Below are positions 2,887-23,982 of a DNA stretch of 44,710 nt, one piece after another (the first letter of the stretch is position 1; every line of letters begins with the position of its first letter). The DNA lies in contig JBGAKG010000005.1 of assembly GCA_044224495.1 (NCBI GenBank), positions 1 to 44,710 of the forward strand, given 5' to 3'. Source of the stretch: Polyangiaceae bacterium (GTDB lineage Bacteria > Myxococcota_A > Polyangia > Polyangiales > Polyangiaceae). The translations under genes and the position numbers were made by a program. Below the pieces are notes generated by a model. That model was not told where the DNA came from, made no database searches, and saw only the letters and a list, made by a program, of their open reading frames with translations.

Positions 2887-3066
2887 AGTGGCGCGAGCGC
2901 GGACGAAGAGCGCGTGGCAAAGAGGAAGCGGGCTCAGAGCGCCTAGGCTCGTAGCCCACCATTCGCCTCGGGGTCAACGAAGGAATCGAGTGATTCCCAA
3001 GCACCTTCGCGGCGGTAGGCCCGAGCAAGAAGCCAACGCGGGGCGGGAGCCGAATGTTCCCGAGTT

Positions 3067-4374
3067 GTGGTACCGCTCGACCCGATGATCCGCCGCCCCG
3101 CCTTGATCCTCGCGATCCTCACGGGGTTGAACCTCCTCAACTACATGGACCGGACGATCCTCGCGGCGGTCCTCGCGCGGATCCAAGACAAGTCCCAGCT
3201 CGACCTGGACGAGCTCCAGGGCGGGACCCTCGCGACGGCGTTCCTCATCGGCTACTTCGCGACGAGCCCCATCTTCGGGGCGCTCGCCGACCGAGCGACC
3301 AAGAGCGAGGGGCTCTTCGGCGGCCGCAAGGTCCTCATGGCGTTCGGCGTGCTCGTCTGGAGCGCCGCCACCTGGGCGACCGGCCACGCGCACTCGTACG
3401 CGACGATCCTCCTCGCGCGCGCCGTCGTCGGCGTGGGCGAGGCGAGCTACGCCGCCGTCGCCCCGACGATCATCGACGACCTCGCCCCGGCCGAGAAGAA
3501 GGGCCGCTGGCTCTCGGTCTTCTACCTCGCGATCCCGATTGGGTCCGCGGTCGGGTACCTGCTCGGCGGGTTCATCGAGAAGCGCTTCGACTGGCGCACG
3601 GCGTTCTGGTTCGCGGGCGGGCCGGGCGTGGTCCTGGCGCTCGCGTGCCTCCTGATCGTCGAGCCGCCGCGCACGCCGCGGAAGCGGGAGCCGGTCCTCG
3701 CGATGCTGCGCCCGCTCGGTCAGCAACGCCTCTACCGCCGCGCCGTCGCCGGGTACTGCCTCTCGACCTTCGCGCTCGGAGGCTTCGCCCACTGGGCGCC
3801 GAAGTTCATCCACGTCGAGTACGACATGAAGCTCGACAAGGCGAACTACGTGTTCGGGCTCGTCCTCATCGTCGCGGGGGCGCTGACGACGAGCCTCGGC
3901 GGCTGGCTCGGCGATCGGGCGGGGAAGCGGATGGCGGCGCGCGGGGGTGTCCCAGAAGGGGACAGCCTCCCGCTCGGCCACCTGCGCGTGTGCGCGATCG
4001 CGAGCTTCCTCGGGGCGCCGTTCGCGGCGGCGGCCTTCCTCTCACCCACGCCCCAGATCTTCTTCGTCTTCATGTTCCTCGCGATCGCGAGCGTGTTCCT
4101 GGGCAACTCGCCCATCAACGCCGCGCTCCTGAGCTCGGTGCCACCGCACCTCCGCGCGAGCGCGATGGCCCTCTCGATCTTCGCGATCCACATCCTCGGC
4201 GACATGTGGAGCCCGCCGATGGTGGGCGGCCTGATGAAGGTGCTCGGCTCGCGACCGCTCGCGATGGAGCTCCTGCCGCTCGCCATCCTGGGGTCCGCGT
4301 GCTTCTGGTGGATCCGGGCGCCGAAGCCCGCGCCGACCGCCAGTCCAGCGAGTCCGACAAAGCTGGTTCCTTGA
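3067..4374 (+). CDS. MFS transporter (spinster-like major facilitator).
   Basis: Twelve hydrophobic segments. MFS signature around GALADRATKSEGLFGGRKVL, with D-R-x-G-R-like loops. The start may instead be the ATG at 3085. Confidence 0.75.
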   Translation: MVPLDPMIRRPALILAILTGLNLLNYMDRTILAAVLARIQDKSQLDLDELQGGTLATAFLIGYFATSPIFGALADRATKSEGLFGGRKVLMAFGVLVWSAATWATGHAHSYATILLARAVVGVGEASYAAVAPTIIDDLAPAEKKGRWLSVFYLAIPIGSAVGYLLGGFIEKRFDWRTAFWFAGGPGVVLALACLLIVEPPRTPRKREPVLAMLRPLGQQRLYRRAVAGYCLSTFALGGFAHWAPKFIHVEYDMKLDKANYVFGLVLIVAGALTTSLGGWLGDRAGKRMAARGGVPEGDSLPLGHLRVCAIASFLGAPFAAAAFLSPTPQIFFVFMFLAIASVFLGNSPINAALLSSVPPHLRASAMALSIFAIHILGDMWSPPMVGGLMKVLGSRPLAMELLPLAILGSACFWWIRAPKPAPTASPASPTKLVP

Positions 4375-4406
4375 CACTTGTTCACCCCATGGGATAGGTC
4401 GGACCG

Positions 4407-6398
4407 ATGGCGAAGAAGTCCAAGGCCACCCCCCCGCCGAAGCAGCCGAAAACGCCTGCCGCGAAAGCGAAGGCCGCTCCGGCGCCGGCAAAACCCGCCC
4501 CGGCGAAGAACGCGAAGGCGAAAGCGGCGGAAAAAGCACCGCCGCCGAAGGCCGCTCCGGCGAAGGCCGCCCCGGCGAAGGCCGCTCCGGCGAAGGCCGC
4601 TCCGGCGAAGGCCGTCGCCGCGCCGCCGCCGCCGCCTGCTTCCGAGCCGCCGCCCGCCTCCGAGCCGGAGCCGAAGGCCGCCCCCAAGCGGCGCGCCACC
4701 GCGGAGACGATGGGGGCGAAGCAGCGCGAGATCTCGGTCTCCGAGTTCTTCACCAAGAACCGCCACCTGCTCGGGTTCGACAACCCGGCGAAGGCCCTCC
4801 TGACCACGGTGAAGGAAGCGGTCGACAACTCGCTCGACGCCTGTGAAGAGGCGGGGATTCTTCCGGAGATCAAGGTCGAGATCACGGAGCTCGCGGAGAG
4901 CCGCTTCCGCGTCGCGATCGAGGACAACGGGCCCGGCATCGTGAAGCCGCAGATCCCGAAGATCTTCGCGAAGCTCCTCTACGGGTCGAAGTTCCACCGC
5001 CTGCGCCAGTCGCGCGGACAGCAGGGCATCGGCATCAGCGCCGCGGGTCTCTACGCGCAGCTCACGACCGGCAAGCCGGTGACGATCACGTCGAAGACGG
5101 GGAAGGGGCGCCCCGCGTTCAAGATCGAGCTCCGCATCGACACGAAGCGCAACCAGCCCGACGTCGTGAAGGACGAGACGGTCGACTGGGAGAAGGAGCA
5201 CGGCACGCGCGTCGAGATGGATCTCGTCGCGGCGTACCGCGGCGGCCGCACCGGCGTGCAGGAGTACTTGGAGCAGACGGTCGTCGCGAACCCGCACCTC
5301 GGGCTCACGTACAAGCCGCCGAAGGGGGAGACGCTCGTCTTCCCGCGCGTCTCCGATGACCTGCCGCGCGAGCCGCAAGAGATCAAGCCGCACCCGCATG
5401 GGATCGAGCTCGGCATGCTCCTCAACATGCTCTCGGACTCGCCGGGCAAGAACGTGAAGCAGGTGCTCGAGGACGACTTCTCGCGCGTGAGCCCCGCGAT
5501 CGCGAAGCAGATCCTGGACATCGCGAAGATCAACCCGAAGACGCGCGCGGACTCGATCATCGGCGAGGAGCTCGATCGGCTCTACAAGGCGCTCGGCGAG
5601 GTCAAGGTGATGGCGCCGTCGGCGAACAGCGTCGTCCCGATCGGGGAAGAGCTGCTCGTGAAGGGGCTCTTGCGCCGGTTCCCGAAGGCGGAGTTCAGTG
5701 TATCTTGCACGCGTCCGCCGAGCGTCTACCGCGGCAACCCGTTCGTGGTCGAGGTCGGGCTCGCGTACGGCGGCGACCTGCCGCTCGACGAGCCCGCGGA
5801 CGTCATGCGGTTCGCGAACCGCGTGCCGCTCCAGTACCAGCCGAAGGCGTGCGCGATCTCCGAGAGCGTGTACGACACGAACTGGAAGAACTACGAGCTC
5901 GCGCAGCCGCGGGGCTCGCTCCCGGTCGGGCCGGTCGCGATCGCGGTGCACCTCGCGAGCGTGTGGGTTCCGTTCACGAGCGAGGCGAAGGAAGCGGTCG
6001 CCCACTACGACGACCTGCTCCGCGAGATGAAGCTCGCGATCCAGGAGTGCGGGCGCAAGCTCGCCGCCCACCTACGGGCGCGCATCCGCGCGAACGCGGA
6101 GTCGAAGCGGCGCGGGATCTTCGAGCGCTACATCCCCGAGGTGAGCCGCGCGATCGCGGCGCTGCTCGACGTCGAGGCGGGGCCGATCGCGAAGCACTTC
6201 ACGACGGCGCTCCCCAAGTTCGTGAACGTGGAGCTGATCGACAAGGTCGAGACGGATGCCCCGAAGCGCGGTGGCGGCTCCGCGCCGCCGCCCCCGCCGT
6301 CCGAGGCACCGCCCCCCATGCCGAAGGTGCCCGCGGCGAAGGCCAAAGTGAAGGGGAAGACCAAGGGCAAGGACGACCGCCAACTGTCGCTGATGTAG
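4407..6398 (+). CDS. top6B: DNA topoisomerase VI subunit B (GHKL ATPase), with Lys/Ala/Pro-rich N- and C-terminal tails.
   Basis: Bergerat-fold boxes are present: N-box [13 protein letters not shown]1 IEDNGPGI, G2 [16 protein letters not shown] transducer-like region follows. The ~100-aa N-terminal tail (AKAAP repeats) and the K-rich C-terminal tail (…[11 protein letters not shown]) are low-complexity. Confidence 0.85.
4546..4614 (+). repeat. 15-bp tandem repeat, cgaaggccgcYccgg in 4 full copies plus a partial one, encoding (AKAAP)n inside top6B.
   Basis: Four full copies read directly at 4546, 4561, 4576 and 4591, then a partial ninth-nucleotide copy. Confidence 0.85.
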
Positions 6399-6414
6399 CC
6401 AAGGAACGAACACG

Positions 6415-7542
6415 ATGGCCTCCAAGAAGACGGCAGCAAAAGATTCGGCGAAGGAACGCGATCAGAAGACGCTCGCGAAGCTCCAGAAGCTCGCGGCGCA
6501 AGCCCTGGCGACGGTTCGTGGCGGTCGCAATCCGGCGCTCGAGATCCGCATGCGCGCGCTCTCGAACGTGTCGTTCAACGAGAAGAAGCGCATCATCGAG
6601 CTCGGCGACAAGACGCAGTCGCGCGAGTTCTTCAACACCGCCATGGCGCGGAAGTTCATGCAGACGTTCCTCCTCGCTCAGGGCTGCAAGGGCCTGATCG
6701 AAGAGGACAAGACGGTCAGCATTCGTCAGCTCTATTACATCTCGAAGCACACCGTCGAAGGCACCAGCGAGAACACCTTCGAAGATCAGAAGGAGAGCGA
6801 TCCGATCATCGAAGACCTCGAGGTCGCAGCGGACGCACTCCGCGAGGAGCTCCACCTCTTCGCGGCGAAGCGTGGCTCGATCGCAGGGGAGCTCGTGATT
6901 CGCGACAGCGGTGACGAGATCGATCTCTCGCGGCTCGGGAGCGGCGGGTGGTCGATCCCGGGGATCTGCGAGCCGAGCAAGGTGCAGTTCGTCCGCAACA
7001 AGGCGAAGTACGTCCTCTTCGTCGAGAAGGACGCAATGTTCAATCGCTTCAACGAGGACAAGTTCTGGCGCAAGAACGAGTGCATCGTGATGACGAGCGG
7101 AGGGCAGGCGACGCGCGGAGCGCGCCGACTGCTCCAGCGCATCGCGGGCGAGCTGAAGATCCCCGTCTACGTCCTCGTCGATAACGATCCGTGGGGGCTC
7201 TACATCTACTCGGTGCTCAAGCAGGGGAGCATCAGCCTCGCCTACGAGTCGATGCGGCTCGCCGTGCCGAACGTCCGGTTCCTCGGCATGAGCGCGTTCG
7301 ACTACAAGAAGTTCAACCTGTCCAAGTCGGTCATCATCAACTTGGAGAAGGAAGACATCGCGCGCGCGAACCAGATGAAGGCGTATGCCTGGTTCAAGGA
7401 CAAGAAGTGGCAGCGCGAGATCCAAGGCATCGTGGACAACGGCTTCAAGATGGAGCTCGACTCGTTCCTCACGAAGGGCGTCAGCTTCATCAGCGAGGAG
7501 TACGTCCCGAAGAAGCTCCGCGACCGCGACTGGATCGAGTGA
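6415..7542 (+). CDS. top6A: DNA topoisomerase VI subunit A (Spo11 / Top6A family).
   Basis: CAP-like domain with the catalytic-tyrosine motif RQLYYISK. Toprim domain with the acidic DxD motif (YVLVDNDPWG). Starts 16 nt after the top6B stop codon and is preceded by aaggaacgaacacg, a plausible SD. Confidence 0.85.
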   Translation: MASKKTAAKDSAKERDQKTLAKLQKLAAQALATVRGGRNPALEIRMRALSNVSFNEKKRIIELGDKTQSREFFNTAMARKFMQTFLLAQGCKGLIEEDKTVSIRQLYYISKHTVEGTSENTFEDQKESDPIIEDLEVAADALREELHLFAAKRGSIAGELVIRDSGDEIDLSRLGSGGWSIPGICEPSKVQFVRNKAKYVLFVEKDAMFNRFNEDKFWRKNECIVMTSGGQATRGARRLLQRIAGELKIPVYVLVDNDPWGLYIYSVLKQGSISLAYESMRLAVPNVRFLGMSAFDYKKFNLSKSVIINLEKEDIARANQMKAYAWFKDKKWQREIQGIVDNGFKMELDSFLTKGVSFISEEYVPKKLRDRDWIE

Positions 7543-7720
7543 GCTGGCTCGATTGAGATAGCGGGATCGTTCGCCCAGGGCCAGTTTCGGCTCGGGGTGG
7601 ATAATTCTTGATCCAACTCCGTGACGTTTTCGTGCAGGCACGGCCATACGGTCCGTGCTATTTGCACAGCGCCGGGCTTTGGGTGCGATGGCACCGTACA
7701 TGCACGGCGAAGAGGTATCC

Positions 7721-8899
7721 ATGCGCTCGCTTCTCTTCGTCTCCTCCCTCGCGGCATTGGCCATCATCGCGCAGGGATGCAGCAGCAAACCGACCTCCCC
7801 GTTCACCGGCGACGCCGGCGACACCACCGACGGCGGCTTCGACCCGTTCGACGGCGGCGATCCCTTCGGTGAAGCCGGCGGCGATGCATCGCAGCCGCCC
7901 GCCTGCAACCCGGACCCGAACAACTTCGACGTCCCGAACAACAACTGCGACGACGACGGCGACGGCACGGTCGACAACGGCACCACCGCCTGCGACCAGG
8001 GCCTCTCGATGACGGGAGACGCGGCGGCGTTCGCCAAGGCGATCGGCCTCTGCAAGAGCGCGTCGCAAGGCGGCTGGGGCGTCGTCTCCGCGACCTACAG
8101 CGACGGCTTCGGCTCTTCGAGCCCGCCCGCCACCGAGCAGCACGGCATCCTCTCGAAGTTCGGCAACGTCCTGAAGCCGCGCCAGGGCGGCTCGCTCGGC
8201 GTGCTGAGCTCCGGCTTCGCGCGCGAGTACGACCAGTGCTTCGGCACGACCGACCCGTTCAAGGGCGGCTGCCCGATGAGCGGCCCCGGCACGGCGCCGA
8301 CGGGCTTCCCGAAGGCTTCGCCGACGTGCGGCAACGTCTCGATCTCGAACACCGTCAACGACGTGATCGATCTGAAGCTCGTCGTGAAGGTCCCCGCCAA
8401 CGCGAAGGGCATCTCGTTCGACTTCAACTTCCTCAGCGGCGAGTGGCCCGAGTACGTCTGCACGCAGTTCAACGACTCGTTCATCGCCTACCTGAAGTCG
8501 AGCGCCTTCAACAACGGCAAGGCCGACAACATCTCCTTCGACAGCAAGAAGAACCCGGTCAGCGTCAACAACGGCTTCTTCGACCGCTGCTCGCCGAAGA
8601 CCCTCAACTGCCTGAACTTCCCGAGCGGGTATCAGGCTTGCAACGGTGGGGACTCGGAGCTCAAGGGCACCGGCTTCTACGATCCGCAGGACAGCTGCTT
8701 CTCCGGTCAGACCGACTCGGGTGGCGGCGGCACGGGCTGGCTGACCACGAAGGCTCCGGTCACGCCGGGCGAGACCATCACGCTCGAATTCCTGATCTGG
8801 GACACGGGGGACGACGCTTACGACTCGAGCGTTCTTATCGACAACTGGAGTTGGGAGACGACCGACACGTCCGTCGGCACCGTCCGTCCCCCGAACTGA
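7721..8899 (+). CDS. Secreted lipoprotein, paralog 1 (hypothetical; Cys/Asp-rich N-terminal region).
   Basis: Signal peptide plus lipobox (LAIIAQGC). About 60% identity to the next gene over the whole length. The ORF in the track begins at 7655, but a signal-peptide start at 7721 is more likely. Confidence 0.7.
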   Translation: MRSLLFVSSLAALAIIAQGCSSKPTSPFTGDAGDTTDGGFDPFDGGDPFGEAGGDASQPPACNPDPNNFDVPNNNCDDDGDGTVDNGTTACDQGLSMTGDAAAFAKAIGLCKSASQGGWGVVSATYSDGFGSSSPPATEQHGILSKFGNVLKPRQGGSLGVLSSGFAREYDQCFGTTDPFKGGCPMSGPGTAPTGFPKASPTCGNVSISNTVNDVIDLKLVVKVPANAKGISFDFNFLSGEWPEYVCTQFNDSFIAYLKSSAFNNGKADNISFDSKKNPVSVNNGFFDRCSPKTLNCLNFPSGYQACNGGDSELKGTGFYDPQDSCFSGQTDSGGGGTGWLTTKAPVTPGETITLEFLIWDTGDDAYDSSVLIDNWSWETTDTSVGTVRPPN

Positions 8900-8920
8900 C
8901 ATCCCAACGAGGTACAAGCC

Positions 8921-10087
8921 ATGCGTTCGCTCCTCCTCGCGTCGTCCATCGCCGTCGTCGTGTTCGCGGCTGGTTGCAGCTCGCCCCCGCCCAACGTCTT
9001 CGCGGACGGTGGTCAGCTTCCCGGTGACGACTCCGGCACCGTCATCCCCGGCGACGATAGCGGGAACCCGTTCGATCCCGACGCGACCACCGGCGACGGC
9101 GGCGGCACGCCCCAGTGCAACCCGAGCCCCGACAACTTCGAGGTACCCGGCAACAACTGTGACGACGACGGGGACGGTCAGGTCGACAACGTCGCGGGCC
9201 CCTGCGACAACGGCCTCGCGATCACGGGTGATGCAGCTGCGTTCGCCAAGTCGATCGGCCTCTGCAAGGGCGTCGTCAGCGCGACGTTCACCCAGGGCTA
9301 CAACAACACGACCGCGCCCTCGAACGATCAGCACGGCATCCTCACGAAGTTCGGCAACGTCATCAAGCCGAAGCAGGGCTCGAACCTCGGCGTGCTGAGC
9401 TCCGGCTTCGCGCGCGAGTACAACGGCCTCTCCGGCACGGCGGTGTTCCGCGGCTTCAGCGGCGCGATGACCGGCACCGGCGCTGCGCCGCCCGGCTACC
9501 CCAAGGCGTCGCCGGCGTGCCCCAACGCGTCGATCAGCACGACCGTGAAGGACGTCATCAACCTGAAGCTCCAGGTGAAGGTGCCCGCGAACGCGAAGGG
9601 CTTCTCCTTCCAGTTCAACTTCTTCAGCGGCGAGTGGCCCGAGTTCGTCTGCACGCAGTTCAACGACTCGTTCATCGCGTACCTCACGTCGAAGGCGTTC
9701 AACAGCGGCAAGCCCGAGAACATCTCTTTCGACGCGAACAAGAACCCGGTCAACGTCAACAACGGCTTCTTCGATCGCTGCTCGCCGTCGTCGCTCACGT
9801 GCTCCAACTTCCCGCCGAACTACAAGGCGTGCGCGAGCGGTGACTCTGAGCTCCAGGGTACCGGCTACTTCGCGTCGGGCGCGCACTGCAGCGGGACGAC
9901 CGACTCGGGCGGTGGCGCCACGGGTTGGCTCCAGACCAAGGCGCCGGTGCAGCCGGGCGAGACGATCACGATCGAGTTCATGATCTGGGACACCGGCGAC
10001 CAGGCGTGGAACTCGAGCGTTCTCCTCGACTCGTGGGCATGGGAAGCGACCGACACGCAGGTCGGTACGGTCCGCGGCCCGAACTGA
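8921..10087 (+). CDS. Secreted lipoprotein, paralog 2 (tandem duplicate of 7721-8899).
   Basis: Signal peptide plus lipobox (VVFAAGC). Shared motifs with paralog 1: NNCDDDGDG, HGIL(S/T)KFGNV, GVLSSGFAREY, FNDSFIAYL, and the C-terminal GTVR(P/G)PN. Confidence 0.75.
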   Translation: MRSLLLASSIAVVVFAAGCSSPPPNVFADGGQLPGDDSGTVIPGDDSGNPFDPDATTGDGGGTPQCNPSPDNFEVPGNNCDDDGDGQVDNVAGPCDNGLAITGDAAAFAKSIGLCKGVVSATFTQGYNNTTAPSNDQHGILTKFGNVIKPKQGSNLGVLSSGFAREYNGLSGTAVFRGFSGAMTGTGAAPPGYPKASPACPNASISTTVKDVINLKLQVKVPANAKGFSFQFNFFSGEWPEFVCTQFNDSFIAYLTSKAFNSGKPENISFDANKNPVNVNNGFFDRCSPSSLTCSNFPPNYKACASGDSELQGTGYFASGAHCSGTTDSGGGATGWLQTKAPVQPGETITIEFMIWDTGDQAWNSSVLLDSWAWEATDTQVGTVRGPN

Positions 10088-14540: not shown

Positions 14541-15692
14541 TCAGTGCACCAGTGGGGTGCAGCGGAGGGCACCGGAGACGTGCGTGCACGTCGAGCTCGC
14601 GTTGCAGCAGTCGCCACGCACCGAGCAGAGCGCGCCGTCCGGCACGCAGCCGATCGTGCAACGCAGGTTGCCTTCGCCGTCGGGAGCGCAGCGGCCCTGG
14701 CAACACTGCGCGGTCAACGCACACGGCGAGCCGTCGCTGAAGCACGCGGAGGTGGGCGAGCAGCGCTTCACGCCGGAGCTCGTCGGCTCCGGCGCGCACG
14801 GGCCGGTGCAACACTCGCTGGCTTTGGCGCACGCCTCGCCGAGGGCGCCGCACGACTTCAGCGCGCAGCGAGAGATCCCATCGCTGTCCGCGGCGCACGC
14901 ACCGGAGCAGCAGTCCGCGTCCTTCGTGCAGGTCTCGCACGTCGGGCGGCAGCCGCCGAGCGGTGCGCAGCGGCGCGTGCCGTCCGATGTGGGTTGGCAC
15001 CGGCGCGAGCAGCAGTCGTCGTCGAGCGTGCAGACCTCTTCGGCCACGGCGGTGCACCCGGTCCCGTCGTTCGTCGCGCACTGAGCGGCCGGCGCGCACC
15101 GACCCACGCCGTCGCTTCCGGTCACGCAGCGGCTCGAGCAGCAGGATGCGCCCACCGAGCACAGCTCGCCCGCGACGCGGCACCCCTGGAGGAGCGCGCA
15201 CCGCCGCTCGCTGCCCTTCTTCTCGCACACCCGCCCGCAGCACTCGCTGTCCGCGGTGCAGAGCTCGCCGGCCGGGCTGCACGTCGGCGCCGCCACGCAG
15301 AGCTGGTTCGCACAGCGCCCGCTGCAGCAGTCGGGCCCTCCCGCGCAGGCCGTGCCCGCCGCGCCGCAGATGCCGCTCGTGCACGTGCGGCTGCCCTCCG
15401 TCCCCGCGCACGAGAGGGAGCAACAGTCGCCCGCGGTGGAGCAGCTCGCCCCGAGCGCCTTGCACCCGTTGGGTTGCCGGCACGTGAGCTGCCCCAGCGT
15501 GTCGACCGCGCACAGGCCACTGCAGCACTCCGCGGACTCGGCGCAGGCTTGGCCGATGTCCTTCTTGTTCGTGCAACCGGCGTCGCCGCTGTCGGGCGAG
15601 CCGGGCGGCGGGCGGTCGAGCACGGCCAGGTTCGACGCTTCGCAGGCGACGACGAACGCCGCGACGGCGAGGGTGGTCAGAAGGTGGCGCAT
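14541..15692 (-). CDS. Secreted cysteine-rich repeat protein, a paralogous architecture with 10 modules of the C-C-CC-C-C framework.
   Basis: Start confirmed at the ATG at 15692 (MRHLLTTLAVAAFVVACEAS). Modules include CAESAECCSGLCAV, CSTAGDCCSLSCAG and CTKDADCCSGACAA. The upstream part of the 651-aa ORF in the track is Arg-rich junk. Confidence 0.8.
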   Translation of the reverse strand: MRHLLTTLAVAAFVVACEASNLAVLDRPPPGSPDSGDAGCTNKKDIGQACAESAECCSGLCAVDTLGQLTCRQPNGCKALGASCSTAGDCCSLSCAGTEGSRTCTSGICGAAGTACAGGPDCCSGRCANQLCVAAPTCSPAGELCTADSECCGRVCEKKGSERRCALLQGCRVAGELCSVGASCCSSRCVTGSDGVGRCAPAAQCATNDGTGCTAVAEEVCTLDDDCCSRRCQPTSDGTRRCAPLGGCRPTCETCTKDADCCSGACAADSDGISRCALKSCGALGEACAKASECCTGPCAPEPTSSGVKRCSPTSACFSDGSPCALTAQCCQGRCAPDGEGNLRCTIGCVPDGALCSVRGDCCNASSTCTHVSGALRCTPLVH

Positions 15693-16720
15693 GCGCCGAG
15701 CCCTCCTCCCACGCCCGGACCGCCGACGCCCACCACCGTGCTCGACGCGTCGAGCGCGCGAACGGGGCGCAACGGCAGCACGAACGCGACGTCCGCATAG
15801 AGACGCACCCAGCGCCCCAGCGCGAGCCAACCCTGCATGCCGACGTCGATCAGCGTCGTCACGTCGCTCTGCGGGTTCGCCGTCGCGCCGGGCGCCGCCG
15901 TCGCGCCGTACGCGATGCGCGCCACCGTCGCGCGGGCGGTCGCATCGAGGCCGAGCCGACCTGCCGGCGGTGTGAGGGTCAGCGCGGCGCCGAGCCCGCC
16001 CCCAATCGCGCTCGGCGAGACGCGCCCGTCGCCGGACGACGCAGAGAGCCCACCGCGGAGCGCGAGGTGCAACGCGAGCGAGAAGCGCGGGATCACCCAG
16101 AGCGAGGCCACGACGTCGCCGCCGATCAACGTTGCCCCTTCGGCGAAGTGCTCGATCGCGGCGCGCGCTCCGAGACGCGCGCGCGGGGTCGACGGGCCCG
16201 GCGGCGGCGGACGCCGGATCCCGTCGTCGACGGCGTCGCGGACGGCCTTCGGGGGCGGCTCTGCCGGGGGCGGCGCGTCCGCGAGCGCGAGCTCGGCCCA
16301 GCTCGCGCGCAGGAGCTCGTCCATCGCGACGGCGACGAGGAGCGGGCGCGCGTCGGCGGGGTAGCTCCCGACCGGAACGTCGCGCTTCACCTCCTTCGCC
16401 GTGATGCGGTCGCGCACCTCGATCGTCAGCGTGACGTCGTTCTCGTGCGTGACCAGGTGCACCGCCGCGATGGGGCGTCGCTCTCCGCCGGAGCACAGCT
16501 GGAGCCCGCGTGACTCGAGCTCCGTCCGGAGCAGCCGCAGCAGCCTGTCCCGATCGATCTGGACGTCGTCGTCGACGACTGCTTCGACGGCGGGCAGGTC
16601 CGGCTTGCAGGGCTCCGCCAGCGCTTCGGAGGCGGCACCGAGAGTCACCCCGAGCGGCGCGCCGATCAGCGCCGCCCGCGCGAGCCCTTCAACGACAACG
16701 GTTCGCCACGTCCGCTGCAT
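15677..16720 (-). CDS. Hypothetical secreted protein (possibly an outer-membrane protein; the C-terminus ends …GLGACATF).
   Basis: Signal peptide MQRTWRTVVVEGLARAALIGAPLGVTLGAASEALA. The start was chosen at 16720. The Arg-rich extension up to 16975 overlaps the anti-sigma gene and is rejected. Lies between the anti-sigma gene and the Cys-rich genes. Confidence 0.5.
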   Translation of the reverse strand: MQRTWRTVVVEGLARAALIGAPLGVTLGAASEALAEPCKPDLPAVEAVVDDDVQIDRDRLLRLLRTELESRGLQLCSGGERRPIAAVHLVTHENDVTLTIEVRDRITAKEVKRDVPVGSYPADARPLLVAVAMDELLRASWAELALADAPPPAEPPPKAVRDAVDDGIRRPPPPGPSTPRARLGARAAIEHFAEGATLIGGDVVASLWVIPRFSLALHLALRGGLSASSGDGRVSPSAIGGGLGAALTLTPPAGRLGLDATARATVARIAYGATAAPGATANPQSDVTTLIDVGMQGWLALGRWVRLYADVAFVLPLRPVRALDASSTVVGVGGPGVGGGLGACATF

Positions 16721-17702
16721 GCACACCGTTCGGATACCGAGCAGCGTACGCGTCCCGAGCCGAGACGCAACGGGAGTCATGGGAGCGCTCCAGCGCCTCG
16801 ACGCGCCGCGCCTCCGCGTCCTCGCGGAACGACGCGTTCGGCGCGAGCACGAGCGCATCGTCCAACGCCTCCACCGCGCCCTTCGGATCGCCGAGCGTGT
16901 CGAGCCGCAGGCGGCCGAGCTCGAACGCCGCGATCCCTGCGCGCGGGTCCGAGCGGTACTGGCGGCGGAGCGCATCGAGCGCCGCGGCCGCGTCGCGCGG
17001 CTTGCCCGAGATCCGCGCTTCGTCGGCCTGCTCCATGAGCTCCTTCGCCGTTGCGCGCGGCTTCACCGCGACCGTGGCCGTGACGGTCGGCTCCACCTGC
17101 GTCGCGCTCGGCGGCGCGGTGGTCGTCGGGGCAACGTCGATCCGTCCCGCCTCCACGTCGGCCGTGCCGTCCCAGCTCTCGTGCGCAGCGACCACGCGGA
17201 CGAGCACGCCGTCGCGCCGGACCTCGACCGCACCCTCGCGCACCTCGACGTGGACGGCCCCCGGCGTCCGCTCGACGCGGAACGTGGTGCCGACGTCGAT
17301 CACGTCGTAGGGACCGGCGTGGACGACGAAGCGACGCGTCTCGACGTGCGGCACGACGAAGTCGGCCGCGCCGTGGTCGATCGTGAGGGCAATCGTCTCG
17401 CGCGCCGCCATGTCGACCCGGACGTCCGCATCGGCGTGCGGGGTCACGCGCGCACCATCGGGGAGGACGATCGCGGCATCGCTCGCGGCGGGAAGGGGCG
17501 CTTTCGCCGTCGCGATCGGCGCCGGCTTGTCGTGGAACGCGAAGAACAGGGCGACCGCCGCCGCCGCCGCCAGCGCACCGCCGCCGGCGACCCACCCGAT
17601 TCGGCGCGGGGGAGGGCTCGCGACGACGGCGAGCGCGCGATCGATCCGCGCCTCGTCGACCTCGCTCCGGACCCAGTGACTCAGGTCTTGCGGTTCGCTC
17701 AT
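16689..17702 (-). CDS. FecR-domain anti-sigma factor (single transmembrane segment; periplasmic FecR domain plus a TPR-like tail).
   Basis: Start MSEPQDLSHW at 17702, overlapping the sigma-factor stop codon by 4 nt (ATGA). A TM helix (WVAGGGALAAAAAVALFFAF) and FecR-like beta region (DGARVTPHADADVRVD…VHVEVREGAVEV) are present. Confidence 0.75.
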   Translation of the reverse strand: MSEPQDLSHWVRSEVDEARIDRALAVVASPPPRRIGWVAGGGALAAAAAVALFFAFHDKPAPIATAKAPLPAASDAAIVLPDGARVTPHADADVRVDMAARETIALTIDHGAADFVVPHVETRRFVVHAGPYDVIDVGTTFRVERTPGAVHVEVREGAVEVRRDGVLVRVVAAHESWDGTADVEAGRIDVAPTTTAPPSATQVEPTVTATVAVKPRATAKELMEQADEARISGKPRDAAAALDALRRQYRSDPRAGIAAFELGRLRLDTLGDPKGAVEALDDALVLAPNASFREDAEARRVEALERSHDSRCVSARDAYAARYPNGVHAADVANRCR

Positions 17703-18430
17703 CGGTCCCCCCGCTCGAGCTCGATGAGGAGCTCGTCTTCGGCCGCCTCGACCCAGCGCTTGGCGGAGCGCGGGGAAGTATCCATCAACCGAGCGATGTC
17801 GTCGTAGGACGCGCCGTCGATCCGGCGGAGGACGAGCGCCACGCGTTCCCGCGCCGGCAAGCGCTCGAGGCAACGGAACACGGCGGCGAGCTCGCTCCGT
17901 ACGTCGGGCGGGGCCTCGCGGCTGATCAGGAGATCGACGTCGATGGTGGGGCCGCGGCGACGCAACCCGAGCCGCGTCGCGATCCCGCGCCGCCGGATGA
18001 CCTTGCACGCCGTCCGCACGACGATCGCCGACAGCCACGAACCGAACGCCTCGGGCGCCTCGAGTCGGTCGAGCGCCCGCACCGCCGCGAGCATGCTCTC
18101 CTGGACGAGATCGTCGACCTCACCATCGGTGCGACCGAGCAGGCGCTGCGAGAGCCCGAACACCGAACGCGCGTGGCGGCGGAAGAGCTCCTCCCGCGCG
18201 CGCGTATCGCCCCCGCGCGCCGCGAGCACGAGCGACGCATCGATGCTCCCCGAGCCGGACGATCGCGTGAGCGGGTTGCTCGGCCGCGAGCTGCTCTCCG
18301 GGCCGGGCTCGGCGGCATCGTCTCGCACGGTCGAGCTCACCGGAGCTTCCTCCGTGGGCGTGACGAGCGCGAGGTGGGTGCGGCGATGCTCCATGGCCTC
18401 GTAGCCCAAGGTACCGCATGGCCTCTCCAC
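17699..18430 (-). CDS. ECF (sigma-70 family, group 4) RNA polymerase sigma factor.
   Basis: Region 2 (ELFRRHARSVFGLSQRLLG…DLVQESMLAAV) and region 4 (LERLPARERVALVLRRIDGASYDDIARLM). The ATG at 18430 is preceded by a ggagagg SD. An alternative start lies at 18394. Confidence 0.8.
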   Translation of the reverse strand: MERPCGTLGYEAMEHRRTHLALVTPTEEAPVSSTVRDDAAEPGPESSSRPSNPLTRSSGSGSIDASLVLAARGGDTRAREELFRRHARSVFGLSQRLLGRTDGEVDDLVQESMLAAVRALDRLEAPEAFGSWLSAIVVRTACKVIRRRGIATRLGLRRRGPTIDVDLLISREAPPDVRSELAAVFRCLERLPARERVALVLRRIDGASYDDIARLMDTSPRSAKRWVEAAEDELLIELERGDR

Positions 18431-18485
18431 CCGGCGTTTTCCTGCGAAAACCGTGGGTCGATGAAGTGAGCGCGCTTACGGTGTC

Positions 18486-18510
18486 CCACCTGACCTGACC
18501 TGACCTAACC
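18486..18510. repeat. Pentameric tandem repeat (ccacc tgacc tgacc tgacc taacc) lying between the dehydrogenase stop codon and the ECF sigma start.
   Basis: Read directly from the sequence: five NNACC units abutting the stop codon at 18511. Confidence 0.7.
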
Positions 18511-19479
18511 TCAAACGCCCGGATACGGGGTGGGCAACGGCGCACCGGAAATCCAGGCCAACACGTTGGCGACGGCGAGGCTCGCCATCGCTTCGCGCGT
18601 CGCGCTCTCCGCGCTCCCGACGTGGGGGGTCAGCACGGCGGTCGGGGCGCGAAGGAGCGCCGGATCGACCCGCGGTTCGTCGGCGAAGACGTCGAGCCCT
18701 GCCGCCCCGACCCGGCCGCTCGCGAGCGCATCCGCCAGCGCCCGCTCGTCGACGCAGCCCCCACGCGCCGTGTTCACGAAGATCGCCCCCGGCTTCATCT
18801 TCGCGAATCGTGCCGCGTCGAACAGGCGCCGCGTCTCCGCGGTGAGAGGGCAGTGGAGCGAGACCACGTCGGACCGTTCGAGGAGCTCGTCGAGCTCGAC
18901 CCGGGTCGCGCCGAGCTCTGCTTCGCGCTCGGCGGGGAGGGCACTCCGTTGATGGTAGAGTACATGCATCGCGAAGCCGCGTGCGCGGCGCGCCACCGCC
19001 TGCCCGATCCGGCCCATCCCGACGAGCCCGAGGGTGCGGTGGTGGACCGCCGCGCCCAACATCGTCCCGAGCGTCCACCGCGGGAACGCTCCCTCGTGCA
19101 CGAGCCGGTCGCCTTCGCAGACCCGCCGCGCCGCCGCGAGGATCAAGGCGAACGTCAGATCGGCGGTGGCGTCGGTCAGGACGTCCGGCGTGTGCGTGAC
19201 GCGCACGCCGTGGGCGCGACACGCGTCCAGGTCGACGTGATCGACGCCGACGGCCACGTTGGCGACGAGGCGGAGGCGCGGCGCACGCGCGAGGAGATCT
19301 TCGTCGATCCGGTCGGTGAGGAGCGCGACGAGCGCATCGACCCGCGCGAGCTCGTCGGCCCCGAGGGCGGAGACGCCCACGCCGGTCTCGCCGACCGTCA
19401 CGTCGGCCACGGCTTCGAGCCGCGCCACGCCGTCGCCGAGGAGCGGGGCGCTCACGAAGACCCGCGGGCGGGCGTTCAT
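18511..19479 (-). CDS. D-isomer-specific 2-hydroxyacid dehydrogenase (glyoxylate / hydroxypyruvate reductase-like).
   Basis: NAD-binding motif GLVGMGRIGQAV, catalytic-region motifs, and the start MNARPRVFVSAPL at 19479. The upstream part of the 474-aa ORF is Arg-rich junk. Confidence 0.8.
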   Translation of the reverse strand: MNARPRVFVSAPLLGDGVARLEAVADVTVGETGVGVSALGADELARVDALVALLTDRIDEDLLARAPRLRLVANVAVGVDHVDLDACRAHGVRVTHTPDVLTDATADLTFALILAAARRVCEGDRLVHEGAFPRWTLGTMLGAAVHHRTLGLVGMGRIGQAVARRARGFAMHVLYHQRSALPAEREAELGATRVELDELLERSDVVSLHCPLTAETRRLFDAARFAKMKPGAIFVNTARGGCVDERALADALASGRVGAAGLDVFADEPRVDPALLRAPTAVLTPHVGSAESATREAMASLAVANVLAWISGAPLPTPYPGV

Positions 19480-20798
19480 GGGGCGTCGAACGCGATGATA
19501 TCGGTCTTGGTGAGCCCGGGGATCGCCGCCTGAACGGCCGACAGGAGCTCGCCGGCGGTGCCCACGACCGTGATCACCAAGTCGTCCTTCGTGAGCCGTG
19601 CCTTCAGCGCGTCGTTCGCGGTGGCCGGCGTGACCGCGCGAACGCGATCGAGCCAACCCGAGTGGTAGTCGCGCGGGAGGCCGAGGAGCTCGATGTCGAG
19701 CTCTTGATGAACGCGCTTCTGCGCGGTGTCGATCTCGAAGGCGTGCGAGCGGACCAAGAAGCGCTGGATGAACGAGAGCTCGCGCTCCGTGATCCCGCCG
19801 CCGAGGAGCGTCTCCAGGAGCGACAGCTCGAGCCCGATGCACGCGGCAGCGTCCTTCGCCGCCGGGAAGGTCCACATCGCGAACGAGTGGCGGTGCCGCT
19901 CCAGCGAGAGGCGCGCGCTCGCGCCGTAGGACCACCCGCGCTTCGAGCGGACCTCCTTCATCAGGCGGGACGTGAACGTGCCGCCGAAGATCGCCGTCGC
20001 CACGCTGAGCGGGACATGATCGGGATCGAGCGCGGTGGTCCCGAGGCTGCCGATCAGGATCTGCGTCTGCGTGCGGTCGGGCTTGTCGACGAAGACGAGC
20101 CGCCGCCCTGGCACCGGCTTCGGCTCCGGCACCGGATCCGCGGGCGATGCCCCCTCCGAAACACCAGAGAGAACGAGCTGCGCGAGCTCGCGCGCCGTCG
20201 GTTCGTCGACGTCCCCCGCGAACGCGACGACGGCGTCCGAGCGGCGGAGGTGGAACGCGTGCGCCGCGCGCACGTCCGCGTCACCAAGGACATCGAGGCT
20301 GGCCTCCGTGCCGCGGACGGTGCGCCCGTAGGCGTGTTCCTCGAAGAGCGCGCGGCGGAAGAACTTGTCGCAGAGGCCGCGGTCGTTGTCGCGCGAGTCG
20401 ATGATCTCGGCCTTCGTCTCGCGGAGCAGCCGCCCGAGCTCGGCCGCGGGGAACTCGGGCTCGGCGAGGATGCGGCGCACCAACTCGCAGAGCGGGCGCA
20501 GGTTGCGGCTGAGGACCTGCGCGTAGAACACGATCGAGGAGGTCGAGACCTCCGCCCCGAGCTCGGCGCCGAGCCGATCGAGCGCAGCTTCGGTCGCGGC
20601 GGCGTCCATGCCGCGCGTCCCGCGCCGCAGCATCCGCGTCATGAGCCGCGCGCGCCCCTCGCGCCCGGGCGGGTCGTGGGCCGCGCCGCTGCGAAACGAG
20701 ATGACGAGCGAGACCAGCGGGAGCACGCGCGACGTCTCGAGGACGAGCGTGGCGCCGCCGTCGGTCGCGATGCGGACCGGTCCGGTGGGGGCGGTCAT
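19476..20798 (-). CDS. M16-family peptidase, non-catalytic partner subunit (no HxxEH motif).
   Basis: M16 fold (MTAPTGPVRIATDGGATLVLE…) with the zinc-binding motif absent. There are 4-nt ATGA overlaps with both neighbouring genes. Confidence 0.7.
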   Translation of the reverse strand: MTAPTGPVRIATDGGATLVLETSRVLPLVSLVISFRSGAAHDPPGREGRARLMTRMLRRGTRGMDAAATEAALDRLGAELGAEVSTSSIVFYAQVLSRNLRPLCELVRRILAEPEFPAAELGRLLRETKAEIIDSRDNDRGLCDKFFRRALFEEHAYGRTVRGTEASLDVLGDADVRAAHAFHLRRSDAVVAFAGDVDEPTARELAQLVLSGVSEGASPADPVPEPKPVPGRRLVFVDKPDRTQTQILIGSLGTTALDPDHVPLSVATAIFGGTFTSRLMKEVRSKRGWSYGASARLSLERHRHSFAMWTFPAAKDAAACIGLELSLLETLLGGGITERELSFIQRFLVRSHAFEIDTAQKRVHQELDIELLGLPRDYHSGWLDRVRAVTPATANDALKARLTKDDLVITVVGTAGELLSAVQAAIPGLTKTDIIAFDAP

Positions 20799-22147
20799 TC
20801 GGCTTCTCCCGCAGCCGCGGCGGGCGCGGCGCTGGGGACGACGAGCACCACGGTGCGCGCGCTCGTGACGAGCCAGCGGCGCGCCACGCGGCGCAGGTCC
20901 GAGGCGGTCACGCGCCGGTAGGCTTCGAGGCGCCGGAAGATCCCCGCCGCGTCGCCGAGCACGGTGTCGTAGAAGCCGATCTGCTCGGCCTTGCCGAAGG
21001 TGGTGTCCAGGCCTTGGAGCGACCCGAGCTCGAGGCGCGCCTTCGCGCGCAGGAGCTCGTCGTCGGTGACGACGTCCCGCCGCACGCGCTCGAGCTCCTG
21101 CTCGAGGACCTCGAGGATCGCGGCGCTCCGCACGCCTTCGCGGGCGGTGAAGTACATCTCCCAGAGCCCCGGCTCCGCGAACGTGCTCACCCAGCCCCGG
21201 AAATCGCTGACGAGCTCGCGCTCGACCAGCAGCGCTCGGTACAGGCGCGAGCCGCGCCCCCCGAAGAGGATCTCGGAGAGCACCGACAGCGGTACGTGAT
21301 CCGTATCCCCGAGGGCCGGGCCCTTGTAACCGAGCACGATCTTCTCCGTCGGCGTGGGCTTCTCGAGCACGACGCGCCGCTCTTCGCTCTGGTACGGCTC
21401 GGGCTCGGCGTCCTCGGGCGGGATCGGCGACGACGGGATCGCGCCGTAGGCGGCCTCGATCTTCTTCAGCGCATCGCCCTCGCGCACGTCTCCGACGAGG
21501 ACGATCGTCGCGTTGTTCGGCGCGTAGTAGGTGCGGTAGAAGGCGGCGCAATCCTCGGGGGTGAAGCCCTCGATGTCGGTCATCCAGCCGATCGTCGGCC
21601 AGTGATACGGGTGGCGGGTGAACGCCGTCTTGTAGAGGACCTCGTTCGCGGTGCCCTCGACGTCGTCGTCGACGCGGAAGCGGCGCTCGTTGGCCACGAC
21701 GTCCTTCTCGCTCGCGACCTGCGGCTCACGCAGGACCAAGCGCGCCATGCGCTCCGCCTCGAGCTTCACGACCAGGCCGAGCCGGTCCTTGGGGAGGGAC
21801 TCGTGGTAGTAGGTCCAGTCGAGCCACGTCGCGGCGTTCGACTCCGCGCCCGCCTCTTCGAGCTTCCGATCGAACGCGCCGGCGCGCAGGTTCTCGGTCT
21901 CGTTGAACATGAGGTGCTCGAACAGGTGCGCGAGGCCCGTCTTCCCCGGCCGCTCGTGGCGCGAGCCGACGCGGAACCACGTCGCGTAGGTGAGGACGGG
22001 CGCGGCGCGGTCCACGAGCAGGAGAACGCGGAGACCGTTCGCCAGCACGTGGCGGCGCACGAAGGCGCCACCGCCGAACGTGACGTCGGCCTCGCGCGTC
22101 GTGGTGGACGGAGCGGAGGAGGAGGATTGGAGTTCGGTCGTTGCCAT
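20795..22147 (-). CDS. M16-family zinc peptidase (pitrilysin-like), catalytic subunit.
   Basis: The HLFEHLMFNETEN zinc-binding HxxEH motif is present. Start MATTELQ at 22147. Confidence 0.8.
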   Translation of the reverse strand: MATTELQSSSSAPSTTTREADVTFGGGAFVRRHVLANGLRVLLLVDRAAPVLTYATWFRVGSRHERPGKTGLAHLFEHLMFNETENLRAGAFDRKLEEAGAESNAATWLDWTYYHESLPKDRLGLVVKLEAERMARLVLREPQVASEKDVVANERRFRVDDDVEGTANEVLYKTAFTRHPYHWPTIGWMTDIEGFTPEDCAAFYRTYYAPNNATIVLVGDVREGDALKKIEAAYGAIPSSPIPPEDAEPEPYQSEERRVVLEKPTPTEKIVLGYKGPALGDTDHVPLSVLSEILFGGRGSRLYRALLVERELVSDFRGWVSTFAEPGLWEMYFTAREGVRSAAILEVLEQELERVRRDVVTDDELLRAKARLELGSLQGLDTTFGKAEQIGFYDTVLGDAAGIFRRLEAYRRVTASDLRRVARRWLVTSARTVVLVVPSAAPAAAAGEAE

Positions 22148-22149
22148 GA

Positions 22150-23982
22150 TCAGAAGTCGCGGACGTCGAGCACGGTCATCGCGCCCGCCTGCCAGCTCCA
22201 GAGGTGCGGCCCGGCGAGGACTACGATGGCGCTGGTCTTCGGATCGTCGCGCCCGACGCGCGCGAGGCGGGCCGGCTCGGCGGAGCGCGGGGCCTCGTAG
22301 AACACCGGATCGCCGCTTCCGACGACCACCACCCCGCCGTCGCTCGCGAGGATGGCGCCGCCATCGATGCCCTTGATGCCGCGGAGCGGGCGCGGGGCGC
22401 CACCGTCCGTTTGGAAGGCTTCGTGCTCCATGTCCCAGAGGACCGGGCGCGGCGTGCCGCCTTCCACGCGGAAGACGCCGCCGTCCTTGCCGAGCACCAC
22501 CGTGACGTTTCGCCAGTGATCGAGATCGACAGGAAGGCCCTGGAGGACGTCGCTCTCGCGGATCGGGAGCCATTTCTGGCCGTCGAAGCGACCGACGGCG
22601 GCCGCGTCGCCGCCCGCGACGAGCATCACGAGCTCGCGCGGGGAACCCGCGAGCGCGAGGACGGACTCGGTCGGCTCCAGGCCGGACTCCGGGCGGAACG
22701 GAACGAACCGCTTCCCCTCGAACTCGAGGAGGGTGCCCGCGCCCCACACCAGAACGCGCCCGGCGGCGCTGCCGATCCCGTAGAACGACGCGCGCCCGTG
22801 GCTCGGGCGGGCGAGGGGGAAGACCTGGAGGTCACCGCCCATGAGGCGGAGCGCGTTCCCGTTCGCGGAGAGGCCCCACAGGATGCCCTCGTCGGTGACG
22901 TGGAGATCGGTGAGAGGCTCCTCCACCGAGTGCGCGCTCTGCACGGCGCCCCCGACGACGTGGAGCAAGAGGCTCGTCGCGTGCTCGGACGTCGAGTGCG
23001 TGCGACCGAGGACGTAGAAGTCGTGCGCCGACGTCCCGCTCGCCGAGCGGAACGAGTGGCGCGTGGACGGGAGCGCGGAGACGGTGATGACGCCGCGGAG
23101 CACGAGCGGGGGCTCGCGCGGTGCGCGCCGGAGATCGCGGACCGTGTCCGGGCGCTTCTCGCGCGGCGCGGAGCGCTCGGCGTCCCCGAAGAAACTCTCG
23201 TCGCGGAACGTGCGGAGCCAGCGGAAGACGTCCTCGGCGCCGAAGACGTAGATGCCGGTGCGGAGGCTGCACGCGATCGTGTACTCGTCGACGTTGAGCG
23301 TGAGCGAGGCTTTGCCGCTCGAGTCGAAGAGGCGGTTGTGGGGACCACGGATCTCGCTCGCCAGCTCCTCGCCCACGAGCGCGACGACGGCGCCGACGTC
23401 CCCCGTCTCGAGCCGACCGACGATCGGATCGTCGAACGTGAAGCCGAGTTGGTAGAGGAGCGTCTTCAGCTGGGCGGGCACCTTGGCGGCGCTCGCGATC
23501 GACTCCTCGCGCCCATCGGCCACGCCGTCGAGCCAATCCCCGAACGTGCGCGCGACGACCGAGCCCTTGTCGCCTTGCATCTCGACGACGGTCGGCTCGC
23601 CGTCGGCGGCGACGTTGCGCTTGTCGAACGCGAGGATGGTGCCGTCCGCGGCCTGGCCGAACGGCGCGTAGTTGGGCGCTTCGATGAGCTGCTTCGCGCG
23701 GGCCATCCCTTCGGCGTCGAAGAGAACCTCGGGGGGACCGAAGTCGGTCGCGACGTGCATCGCGGCGACGTAGCTCGGCGGCAGCTCGAGGCGGAGGATC
23801 CGGGCGCGGTCCGCCATCTCGGCGTCCGTGACGGGGCGACCGAGCTTCTTGCCCTTGCGCTCGGCGACGCTGCGGATGCGTTCGACGCTCGCGAGCGCGG
23901 CACGGGTCGGATCGACGTTCGCGCGGGCCCGCGGTCGAGAAGCGGCAGGCGAGCGAGCGGATCTCTTCGTCGGCCTCTTCAC
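22150..23982 (-). CDS. Hypothetical 610-aa protein with an N-terminal SMI1/KNR4 (SUKH)-like domain and a C-terminal beta-rich region.
   Basis: The N-terminal region ILRLELPPSYVAAMHVATDFGPPEVLFDAEG…APFGQAADGTILAFD resembles SUKH-1 immunity-type domains (assignment by eye). Co-directional with the M16 pair, 2 nt upstream of it. Confidence 0.5.
   Translation of the reverse strand: MKRPTKRSARSPAASRPRARANVDPTRAALASVERIRSVAERKGKKLGRPVTDAEMADRARILRLELPPSYVAAMHVATDFGPPEVLFDAEGMARAKQLIEAPNYAPFGQAADGTILAFDKRNVAADGEPTVVEMQGDKGSVVARTFGDWLDGVADGREESIASAAKVPAQLKTLLYQLGFTFDDPIVGRLETGDVGAVVALVGEELASEIRGPHNRLFDSSGKASLTLNVDEYTIACSLRTGIYVFGAEDVFRWLRTFRDESFFGDAERSAPREKRPDTVRDLRRAPREPPLVLRGVITVSALPSTRHSFRSASGTSAHDFYVLGRTHSTSEHATSLLLHVVGGAVQSAHSVEEPLTDLHVTDEGILWGLSANGNALRLMGGDLQVFPLARPSHGRASFYGIGSAAGRVLVWGAGTLLEFEGKRFVPFRPESGLEPTESVLALAGSPRELVMLVAGGDAAAVGRFDGQKWLPIRESDVLQGLPVDLDHWRNVTVVLGKDGGVFRVEGGTPRPVLWDMEHEAFQTDGGAPRPLRGIKGIDGGAILASDGGVVVVGSGDPVFYEAPRSAEPARLARVGRDDPKTSAIVVLAGPHLWSWQAGAMTVLDVRDF

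Follow-up and report, generated by a model that had tools for sequence, protein, structure and literature searches.

What does topoisomerase VI (Topo VI), which is regarded as the type IIB enzyme of archaea and plants and whose efficiency in vivo is puzzling, do with long basic tails in a high-GC bacterium? The question is raised by the genes top6B and top6A in a stretch of 44,710 nucleotides from a Polyangiaceae bacterium (contig JBGAKG010000005.1), the whole of which was analysed and is called the window below. Subunit B (Top6B, 663 amino acids (aa)) is encoded at 4407–6398 and subunit A (Top6A, a Spo11 homolog of 375 aa) at 6415–7542; both genes start with ATG and, like all other elements of the pair described here, lie on the + strand. 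The open reading frames (ORFs) were found exactly where the initial annotation had placed them. That annotation was also right in calling the C-terminal tail of Top6B K-rich, and it did not mention the conserved end of this tail, the pentapeptide QLSLM (aa 659–663, 6381–6395), from which more can be learned than from any other part of the tail. The comparison of sequences indicates that this peptide is probably a binding motif for the beta sliding clamp (DnaN), and that the enzyme is probably a decatenase tethered to the replisome.

The candidate motif stands out by its conservation. In the clade of the window's Top6B, 98 of the 121 members (window included) carry the pattern Q[LIMV]x[LIMV][FLIMVP] at most 3 aa from the C-terminus, versus 0.45 per 121 (never more than 3) in composition-matched shuffles of the tails. 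The commonest terminal forms are QLSLL, QLSLV, QLSLI, QLTLL and QLSLM, and most of the exceptions are variants of them, e.g., QLSLA, QLSL and QTSLPL. Moreover, an unbiased k-mer enrichment ranked the 4-mer QLSL first, with 59 sequences versus 0.08 expected. Among close orthologs the last codons vary only synonymously (CTG/CTC, CGC/CGT, CAA/CAG), while the linker that precedes them diverges. The motif was not found in the N-terminal tail of any Top6B of this clade (0 of 121), which is consistent with one copy per subunit, at either end. In the AlphaFold2 model of Top6B (single chain, 34 homologs), the core shows the expected GHKL, helical and transducer domains, and QLSLM forms the extreme C-terminus with a predicted local distance difference test score (pLDDT) below 45. 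Both tails are disordered in the model, with no secondary structure over aa 1–~95 and 614–663 and pLDDT values of ~40–55 overall (~43–55 in the N-terminal tail, 37–44 in the C-terminal tail).

The analysis of related loci showed an equivalent motif in other bacterial lineages, located in the N-terminal extension of Top6B. A strict motif match was present in 27 of 69 bacterial loci, versus 0.32 expected from shuffles, and all eight archaeal Top6B loci of a small sample had neither the motif nor long tails. The sequence QLDLFG was detected in a locus from Planctomycetota (L056), QLGLFGG and QLGLFAG in a metagenome-assembled genome (MAG) of Deltaproteobacteria and in Myxococcales (L033, L043), and RQLSLLD or RQLSLLE in Anaeromyxobacter and a Myxococcales MAG (L060, L062, L018), while other Anaeromyxobacter-type loci carry QLELV (L048, L059, L065, L071). 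Eight loci from Acidobacteriota (L027, L038, L040, L042, L044, L053, L063 and L066) carry QxxLF forms such as QASLF and QGSLF. A separate search with Top6B of the Acidobacteriota type found QxxLF in 110 of the 120 best homologs, at a median of 14 residues from the N-terminus, with 0.59 expected from shuffles; the forms observed were QPGLF, QQGLF, QASLF and QLGLF, and most of the 10 sequences lacking the motif look like truncated gene calls.

The published consensus of the clamp-binding motif is QL[S/D]LF, more generally QxxLF, and the peptide QLSLPL is a tight binder (PMC12309361). Such motifs are often C-terminal, lie in unstructured sequence and occupy distinct positions in homologous proteins (PMC4549789). 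The QLSLM of the window matches the consensus at positions 1–4 and has M instead of F at position 5. Like the known clients of the clamp, among them PolC with its C-terminal QLSLF, the QLSLPL peptide and insertion sequence (IS) transposases, Top6B has a short terminal Q-L-x-L-hydrophobic peptide that is unstructured and varies in position among homologs. In contrast to these clients, Top6B belongs to a type IIB topoisomerase, the window's clade mostly has L, V, I or M at position 5, and clamp binding is a prediction. A functional linear motif engaging DnaN is suggested because the peptide is found in orthologs from Bacteria only, sits at the tip of a disordered linker, switches between termini and is present in two lineages with divergent A subunits.

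Several observations weigh against this interpretation. At position 5, where canonical motifs have F, members of the window's clade carry L, V, I or M. The group of the Pirellulales/Phycisphaerae type has a K-rich N-terminal tail only, with no recognisable motif, and the same absence was noted in three Polyangiaceae-type loci (L013, L014 and L016). The starts of the N-terminal extensions in the fetched loci were set at the first ATG, and independent gene calls agree with them. Moreover, the literature search yielded no earlier case of direct beta-clamp binding by a type II topoisomerase, and no paper that ties Topo VI to a clamp-binding motif or describes these tails. With these points taken into account, we lean slightly towards the view that bacterial Topo VI is tethered directly to the replisome by a clamp motif of Top6B that was acquired after the archaeal-type enzyme entered Bacteria. 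The balance tips as narrowly towards a replisome tether that is N-terminal in the Acidobacteriota type, Anaeromyxobacter and some Planctomycetota, and C-terminal in the Polyangiaceae-type clade.

According to PMC8837201, archaeal Topo VI prefers decatenation, works slowly and distributively and is a poor binder of linear DNA; unknown accessory factors and a role in the removal of precatenanes have been proposed for it. This profile agrees with a clamp-tethered enzyme. By homology, the enzyme of the window would be an ATP-dependent A2B2 heterotetramer that passes one duplex through a transient double-strand break and works mainly as a decatenase. Compared with the archaeal enzymes its catalytic core is unaltered, and the B subunit has two disordered additions. 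The polycationic tails may serve as non-specific DNA tethers that raise the local DNA affinity or the processivity of a weakly binding, distributive enzyme. A comparable effect is known from actinobacterial TopA, in which lysine-repeat tails make the enzyme processive and stabilise the enzyme–DNA complex (PMC5714199). With two motifs, one per B subunit, the heterotetramer could hook clamps left on newly replicated DNA through the flexible basic linker, which would enrich the decatenase at the precatenanes and catenanes that trail the fork. We infer all three functions, i.e., that the tails bind DNA, that the peptide binds the clamp and that the enzyme is coupled to the replisome.

The strongest competing explanation is that the tails are generic DNA-binding appendages similar to those of histone H1, and that the terminal peptide does something other than bind the clamp; it might be a latch or autoregulatory element that docks onto Top6A or Top6B, or a contact for another partner such as an SMC or segregation factor. 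The K/A/P composition and the charge of the tails agree with it, as do the residue at position 5, which is not F, and the basic tails that lack the motif in L016, in the C-terminal tail of L018, in L021 and in the Pirellulales group. However, motifs of the same class occur at either terminus and in lineages whose A subunits are only 31–38% identical, which would be difficult to explain if the peptide docked on its own enzyme. The AlphaFold model, with a pLDDT below 45 for the terminus, also does not position it anywhere on subunit B, and the match to the published clamp motif is close, including canonical QLDLF, QLGLF and QLSLPL-like forms. We consider this explanation unlikely, though it fares best among the alternatives to clamp binding.

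A degradation or PDZ-type signal of the form ...[S/T]-L-hydrophobic-COOH, controlling the turnover of Topo VI, would agree with the many termini that fit X-[S/T]-X-hydrophobic-COOH (QLSLL, QLSLV, QLTLI). However, one or two additional residues follow the motif in 49 of the 98 motif-bearing proteins, breaking the C-terminal register, and the invariant Q and L at positions 1–2 are left without an account. In other clades the equivalent motifs are internal and N-terminal, and bacterial PDZ proteases are mostly periplasmic. Such a signal is therefore very improbable as an explanation of the conserved C-terminus.

The tails themselves were characterised in the same sequences. The N-terminal tail (aa 1–92, 4407–4682) is a disordered polycationic K/A/P region recognised by its composition, charge, low pLDDT and single start; aa 1–~96 contain 19 K, 35 A and 27 P and have a net charge of +17. 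The C-terminal tail (aa 617–658, 6255–6380), likewise of low pLDDT, consists of a proline-rich part followed by a K-rich part, and aa 617–663 have a net charge of +6. Both regions lie outside every family model. The likeness to histone H1 or AlgP proposed in the initial annotation held for the K/A/P composition, but no Pfam or NCBIfam family matched aa 1–96 or 617–663, and the resemblance is compositional only. Its claim that basic tails on subunit B are foreign to the archaeal enzymes was borne out, as the archaeal N-terminal extensions measure 16–30 aa and a basic C-terminal tail is absent.

The possibility that the N-terminal tail is an annotation artefact was rejected. The only in-frame ATG, GTG, TTG or CTG between the upstream stop codon (4395–4397) and codon 102 is the ATG at 4407, and translation must start there because, in addition, the residues P93, R95, R96, A99 and E100 are invariant in the homologs. 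These residues belong to the N-terminal strap motif (aa 93–109, 4683–4733), which lies just before the GHKL domain and aligns to M. mazei Top6B from residue 5 onward; P93, R95, R96, A99, E100, M102, Q106, R107 and I109 are invariant in 34 sequences. The AKAAP repeats reported as four to five units correspond to a 15-bp tandem repeat of 4.9 copies that encodes (PAKAA)n at 4542–4614 (Tandem Repeats Finder score 132, 94% matches). Among orthologs that are ~91% identical the N-terminal tail varies between 91 and 109 aa, and the coincidence of the repeat with length differences between close orthologs suggests ongoing expansion and contraction. Across 120 relatives the N-terminal tail measures 8–145 aa and the C-terminal tail 28–168 aa, and the C-terminal tails cannot be aligned.

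A semi-conserved element GGS-x-PPP...PS-x-PPP was also observed after the transducer and before the K-rich stretch (aa 623–640, 6273–6326). The pattern [ST]xPPP was present in the C-terminal tails of 67 of the 120 homologs versus 4.6 in shuffles, and G[GS][ST]xPP in 30 of 120 versus 0.6. This element may act as a stiff polyproline spacer or as another linear motif. Likewise, the start MAKK is common among the orthologs (29 of 120 by k-mer count). Although the tandem repeat, the length variation between close orthologs and the unalignable tail sequence would suit a neutral, functionless origin of the tails, by low-complexity expansion through slippage of repeats in a GC-rich genome or by mis-annotation of 5' or 3' sequence, this explanation is the least credible of all, given the single possible start codon, a net positive charge kept in nearly all of the 120 homologs, and a MAKK start, proline element and terminal motif that all lie far above the shuffle expectation.

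The special tail ascribed to subunit A (start MASKKTAAKDSAKERDQK) proved to be an ordinary N-terminus: the model NF003333 covers aa 12–375, and the N-termini of archaeal Top6A proteins are about as long and in many cases basic. In a locus of a Polyangium MAG (L014, ~7788–9191), the Top6A ORF of 469 aa has a long K/A/P-rich N-terminal extension. Because of this extension, basic tails can decorate the A subunit in some lineages, though not in the window.

The identity of the enzyme as a complete type IIB Topo VI is near certain. Top6B matched the NCBIfam equivalog NF003218 with 684.7 bits (cut-off 274, aa 97–616) and TIGR01052 with a score of 525 (cut-off 381), and Top6A matched the equivalog NF003333 with 549.2 bits (cut-off 465). 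Among structures, Top6B matched 2q2e_B (E = 7e-146) and Top6A 2zbk_A (E = 3e-79) in full-length alignments. The Pfam analysis pointed the same way, with Topo-VIb_trans (PF09239, 5.4e-52) and PF02518 for subunit B, and TOP6A-Spo11_Toprim (4.3e-56), TP6A_N (7e-16) and Topo_VI_alpha for subunit A (PF21180, PF04406 and PF20768).

The catalytic motifs quoted in the initial annotation were all located. In Top6B the Bergerat motifs are EAVDNSLDA (aa 137–145), EDNGPGI (172–178) and GQQGIG (204–209); they are invariant across 34 homologs and were aligned to 2q2e_B and 2zbk_B. They belong to the GHKL/Bergerat ATPase domain (~aa 127–300, 4785–5306; HATPase_c 3e-11), with E137, N141, D144, D173-G175-G177 and the lid G204–G209. 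The transducer domain (aa 404–567, 5616–6107; positions 1–158 of the 159 of PF09239) includes WKNY (493–496) and the switch lysine K528. Located in SEAKEAV, this lysine was aligned to the equivalent lysine region of the solved structures, and the structure model shows a long helix over aa 526–587. WKNY and the invariant RGGR (278–281) stand at the positions that correspond to the WKxY and KGRR DNA-sensing elements. Neither element is mentioned in the accessible text of PMC7614492 or PMC8837201. In Top6A the motifs are RQLYYISK (104–111) and VDNDPWG (255–261). The active-site pair Y107–Y108 (6733–6738) of the CAP/winged-helix domain aligns to tirdLYYrgkh of S. shibatae, and a YY/FY signature typifies type IIB enzymes according to the accessible text of PMC4117785. 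The metal-binding residues of the Toprim domain are E204 (FVEKDA) and D256/D258 (VDNDPWG), encoded within 7024–7188; the Pfam Toprim model was matched over positions 1–170 of 170, and the residues were aligned to 2zbk_A and 1d3y_A.

The two genes are separated by a 16-nt spacer that contains an AAGGAA ribosome-binding site of top6A, read from the sequence at 6401–6406. In most of 80 related loci top6A lies directly 3' of top6B, and in most the gap is a few nucleotides. A scan of 2900–7800 for promoters and terminators gave no signal above the shuffle expectation, and the pair is called an operon because of the spacer, the ribosome-binding site and the conserved adjacency of the two genes. No top6A homolog was observed within ~6 kb downstream of top6B in seven loci of the Acidobacteriota type (L025, L027, L038, L040, L044, L053 and L063), where it may be located elsewhere in the genome.

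The top6 pair is chromosomally native to this Polyangiaceae-type myxobacterium. The G + C content at third codon positions (GC3) is 0.94 in top6B and 0.90 in top6A, and 0.91–0.95 in the neighbouring genes. The pair is flanked in the window by genes for BamA, an MFS transporter, biotin carboxylase, LepA and BipA, and the housekeeping content of the window, beyond LepA and BipA, includes a pseudouridine synthase and an amino-acid kinase. A dnaN gene is absent from the window. An ortholog locus (L001) is ~88.5% identical to the window at the DNA level and has kept the gene order, i.e., BamA/Omp85, the MFS transporter, top6B, top6A, two paralogous secreted proteins, biotin carboxylase and an Rce1-like protease. 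This comparison used P0001, a ~91%-identical Top6B, and an exact-sequence lookup of the window's Top6B returned no record. Because the neighbourhood is conserved, the window has housekeeping content and GC3 matches, there is no sign of recent horizontal transfer, and this possibility was rejected. The lateral acquisition proposed in the initial annotation therefore holds in a deep evolutionary sense only, and not as a recent event, given GC3, the flanks, the synteny and the coherent clade. The tree in which the window's Polyangiaceae-type clade was coherent is a rough, midpoint-rooted neighbour-joining tree of Top6B cores, used for clade coherence and not for the direction of transfer.

Two tandem paralogous Cys-rich proteins with apparent N-terminal signal peptides (7655–8899 and 8921–10087, +) adjoin top6A downstream. 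Both are kept in L001, where a precomputed match to PF26766 (Choice_anch_L) exists; the window copies had no Pfam match at 1e-4. Moreover, the G + C content at 15000–23000 is 0.71–0.75, above the rest of the window, and a simple GC3/GC2 filter called few genes in this stretch, which contains an ECF-type sigma factor at 17699–18430 (-).

The initial annotation described Topo VI as only sporadically distributed in Bacteria, which does not apply to this lineage, in which thousands of close homologs were found. More than 8000 database proteins matched at E ≤ 1e-10, and annotation pipelines label the gene pair automatically. A representative library, which gives no taxonomy and in which bacterial clades collapse into few clusters, contained ~800 clusters (50% identity) at E ≤ 1e-30, and relatives are encoded in the genomes of at least 554 GTDB species. 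The relatives come from Myxococcota, Planctomycetota, Acidobacteriota, Eisenbacteria, Krumholzibacteriia and Bacteroidota, and archaea of the DPANN group and Methanosarcinales are among them with 53–58% identity. The nearest genome is a Polyangiaceae MAG (91% identity for subunit B and 99% for subunit A), and the named homologs belong to Polyangiaceae, Myxococcaceae and Pendulispora. Many Top6B representatives are 1000–1570 aa long and align to the query over two or three regions that are not contiguous (P0122, P0129, P0130, P0138, P0163, P0176 and others), a pattern compatible with large insertions such as inteins.

The A subunits encoded beside related B genes form two classes according to their identity to the A subunit of the window. 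The class with 57–99% identity comprises the Polyangiaceae type, Anaeromyxobacter and a few others, while the class with 31–38% is found in Planctomycetota, Acidobacteriota, other Myxococcales and Eisenbacteria; the identity of subunit B is ~50–60% across both. The affinities of the two subunits of the window are also discordant: Top6B is nearest to M. mazei Top6B (7e-146), while Top6A is far nearer to that of S. shibatae (3e-79) than to M. mazei Top6A (2e-37). This discordance may mean that subunit types were reassorted or that evolutionary rates were very unequal.

The enzyme of the window resembles the archaeal Topo VI of M. mazei (2q2e) and Saccharolobus/Sulfolobus shibatae (2zbk) in having two subunits, adjacent genes in the order B then A and all catalytic residues, with GHKL, helix-two-turn-helix and transducer domains in subunit B and the CAP tyrosine and Toprim domain in subunit A. 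In contrast to these enzymes, its B subunit has disordered basic tails of ~92 aa at the N-terminus and ~47 aa at the C-terminus that ends in QLSLM, while nothing in it corresponds to the ~120 C-terminal residues of M. mazei Top6B (the alignment ends at chain residue 498 of 621). The occurrence of Topo VI in some bacteria, branching with the archaeal enzymes, is documented in the accessible text of Gadelle et al. 2014 (PMC4117785) and McKie et al. 2022 (PMC8837201). As far as that text goes, these surveys present bacterial Topo VI as indistinguishable from the archaeal enzyme, whereas here the B subunits carry extensions with a clamp-type motif. Actinobacterial TopA (PMC5714199) likewise combines a topoisomerase core with a lysine-rich low-complexity extension, but it is a type IA enzyme, not homologous to the type IIB enzyme of the window, and no clamp motif is described for it.

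Topo VIII/Mini-A is also a type IIB family found in bacteria. According to PMC4117785, Topo VIII is no more than a distant relative of Topo VI and is encoded on plasmids or integrated elements. The window instead encodes two separate, canonical subunits among housekeeping genes of the chromosome, and a Topo VIII/Mini-A identity was rejected because of these features together with the host-like GC3 and the absence of a mobile context.

The gene pair itself is of an already known kind, while the tails and the link to a clamp motif are new as far as the literature was searched. Bacteria hold a large population of Topo VI that differs systematically from the archaeal one by disordered basic extensions and a peptide that matches the clamp-docking motif. 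The suggestion in the initial annotation of a second decatenase beside gyrase and Topo IV, or of a role in sporulation, is conjectural. If the prediction of clamp binding is true, a canonical clamp-binding motif would, as far as could be found, be described here for the first time in a type II topoisomerase, and the clamp would supply the missing accessory factor for the efficient in vivo work of a slow, distributive decatenase. A functional motif would offer a simple mechanism coupling decatenation to replication, in which a horizontally acquired enzyme was plugged into the replisome of its host by the evolution of a five-residue motif. Myxobacteria of the Polyangiaceae type, the Acidobacteriota type and some Planctomycetota are the places to ask why a type IIB enzyme has been kept beside the type IIA topoisomerases.

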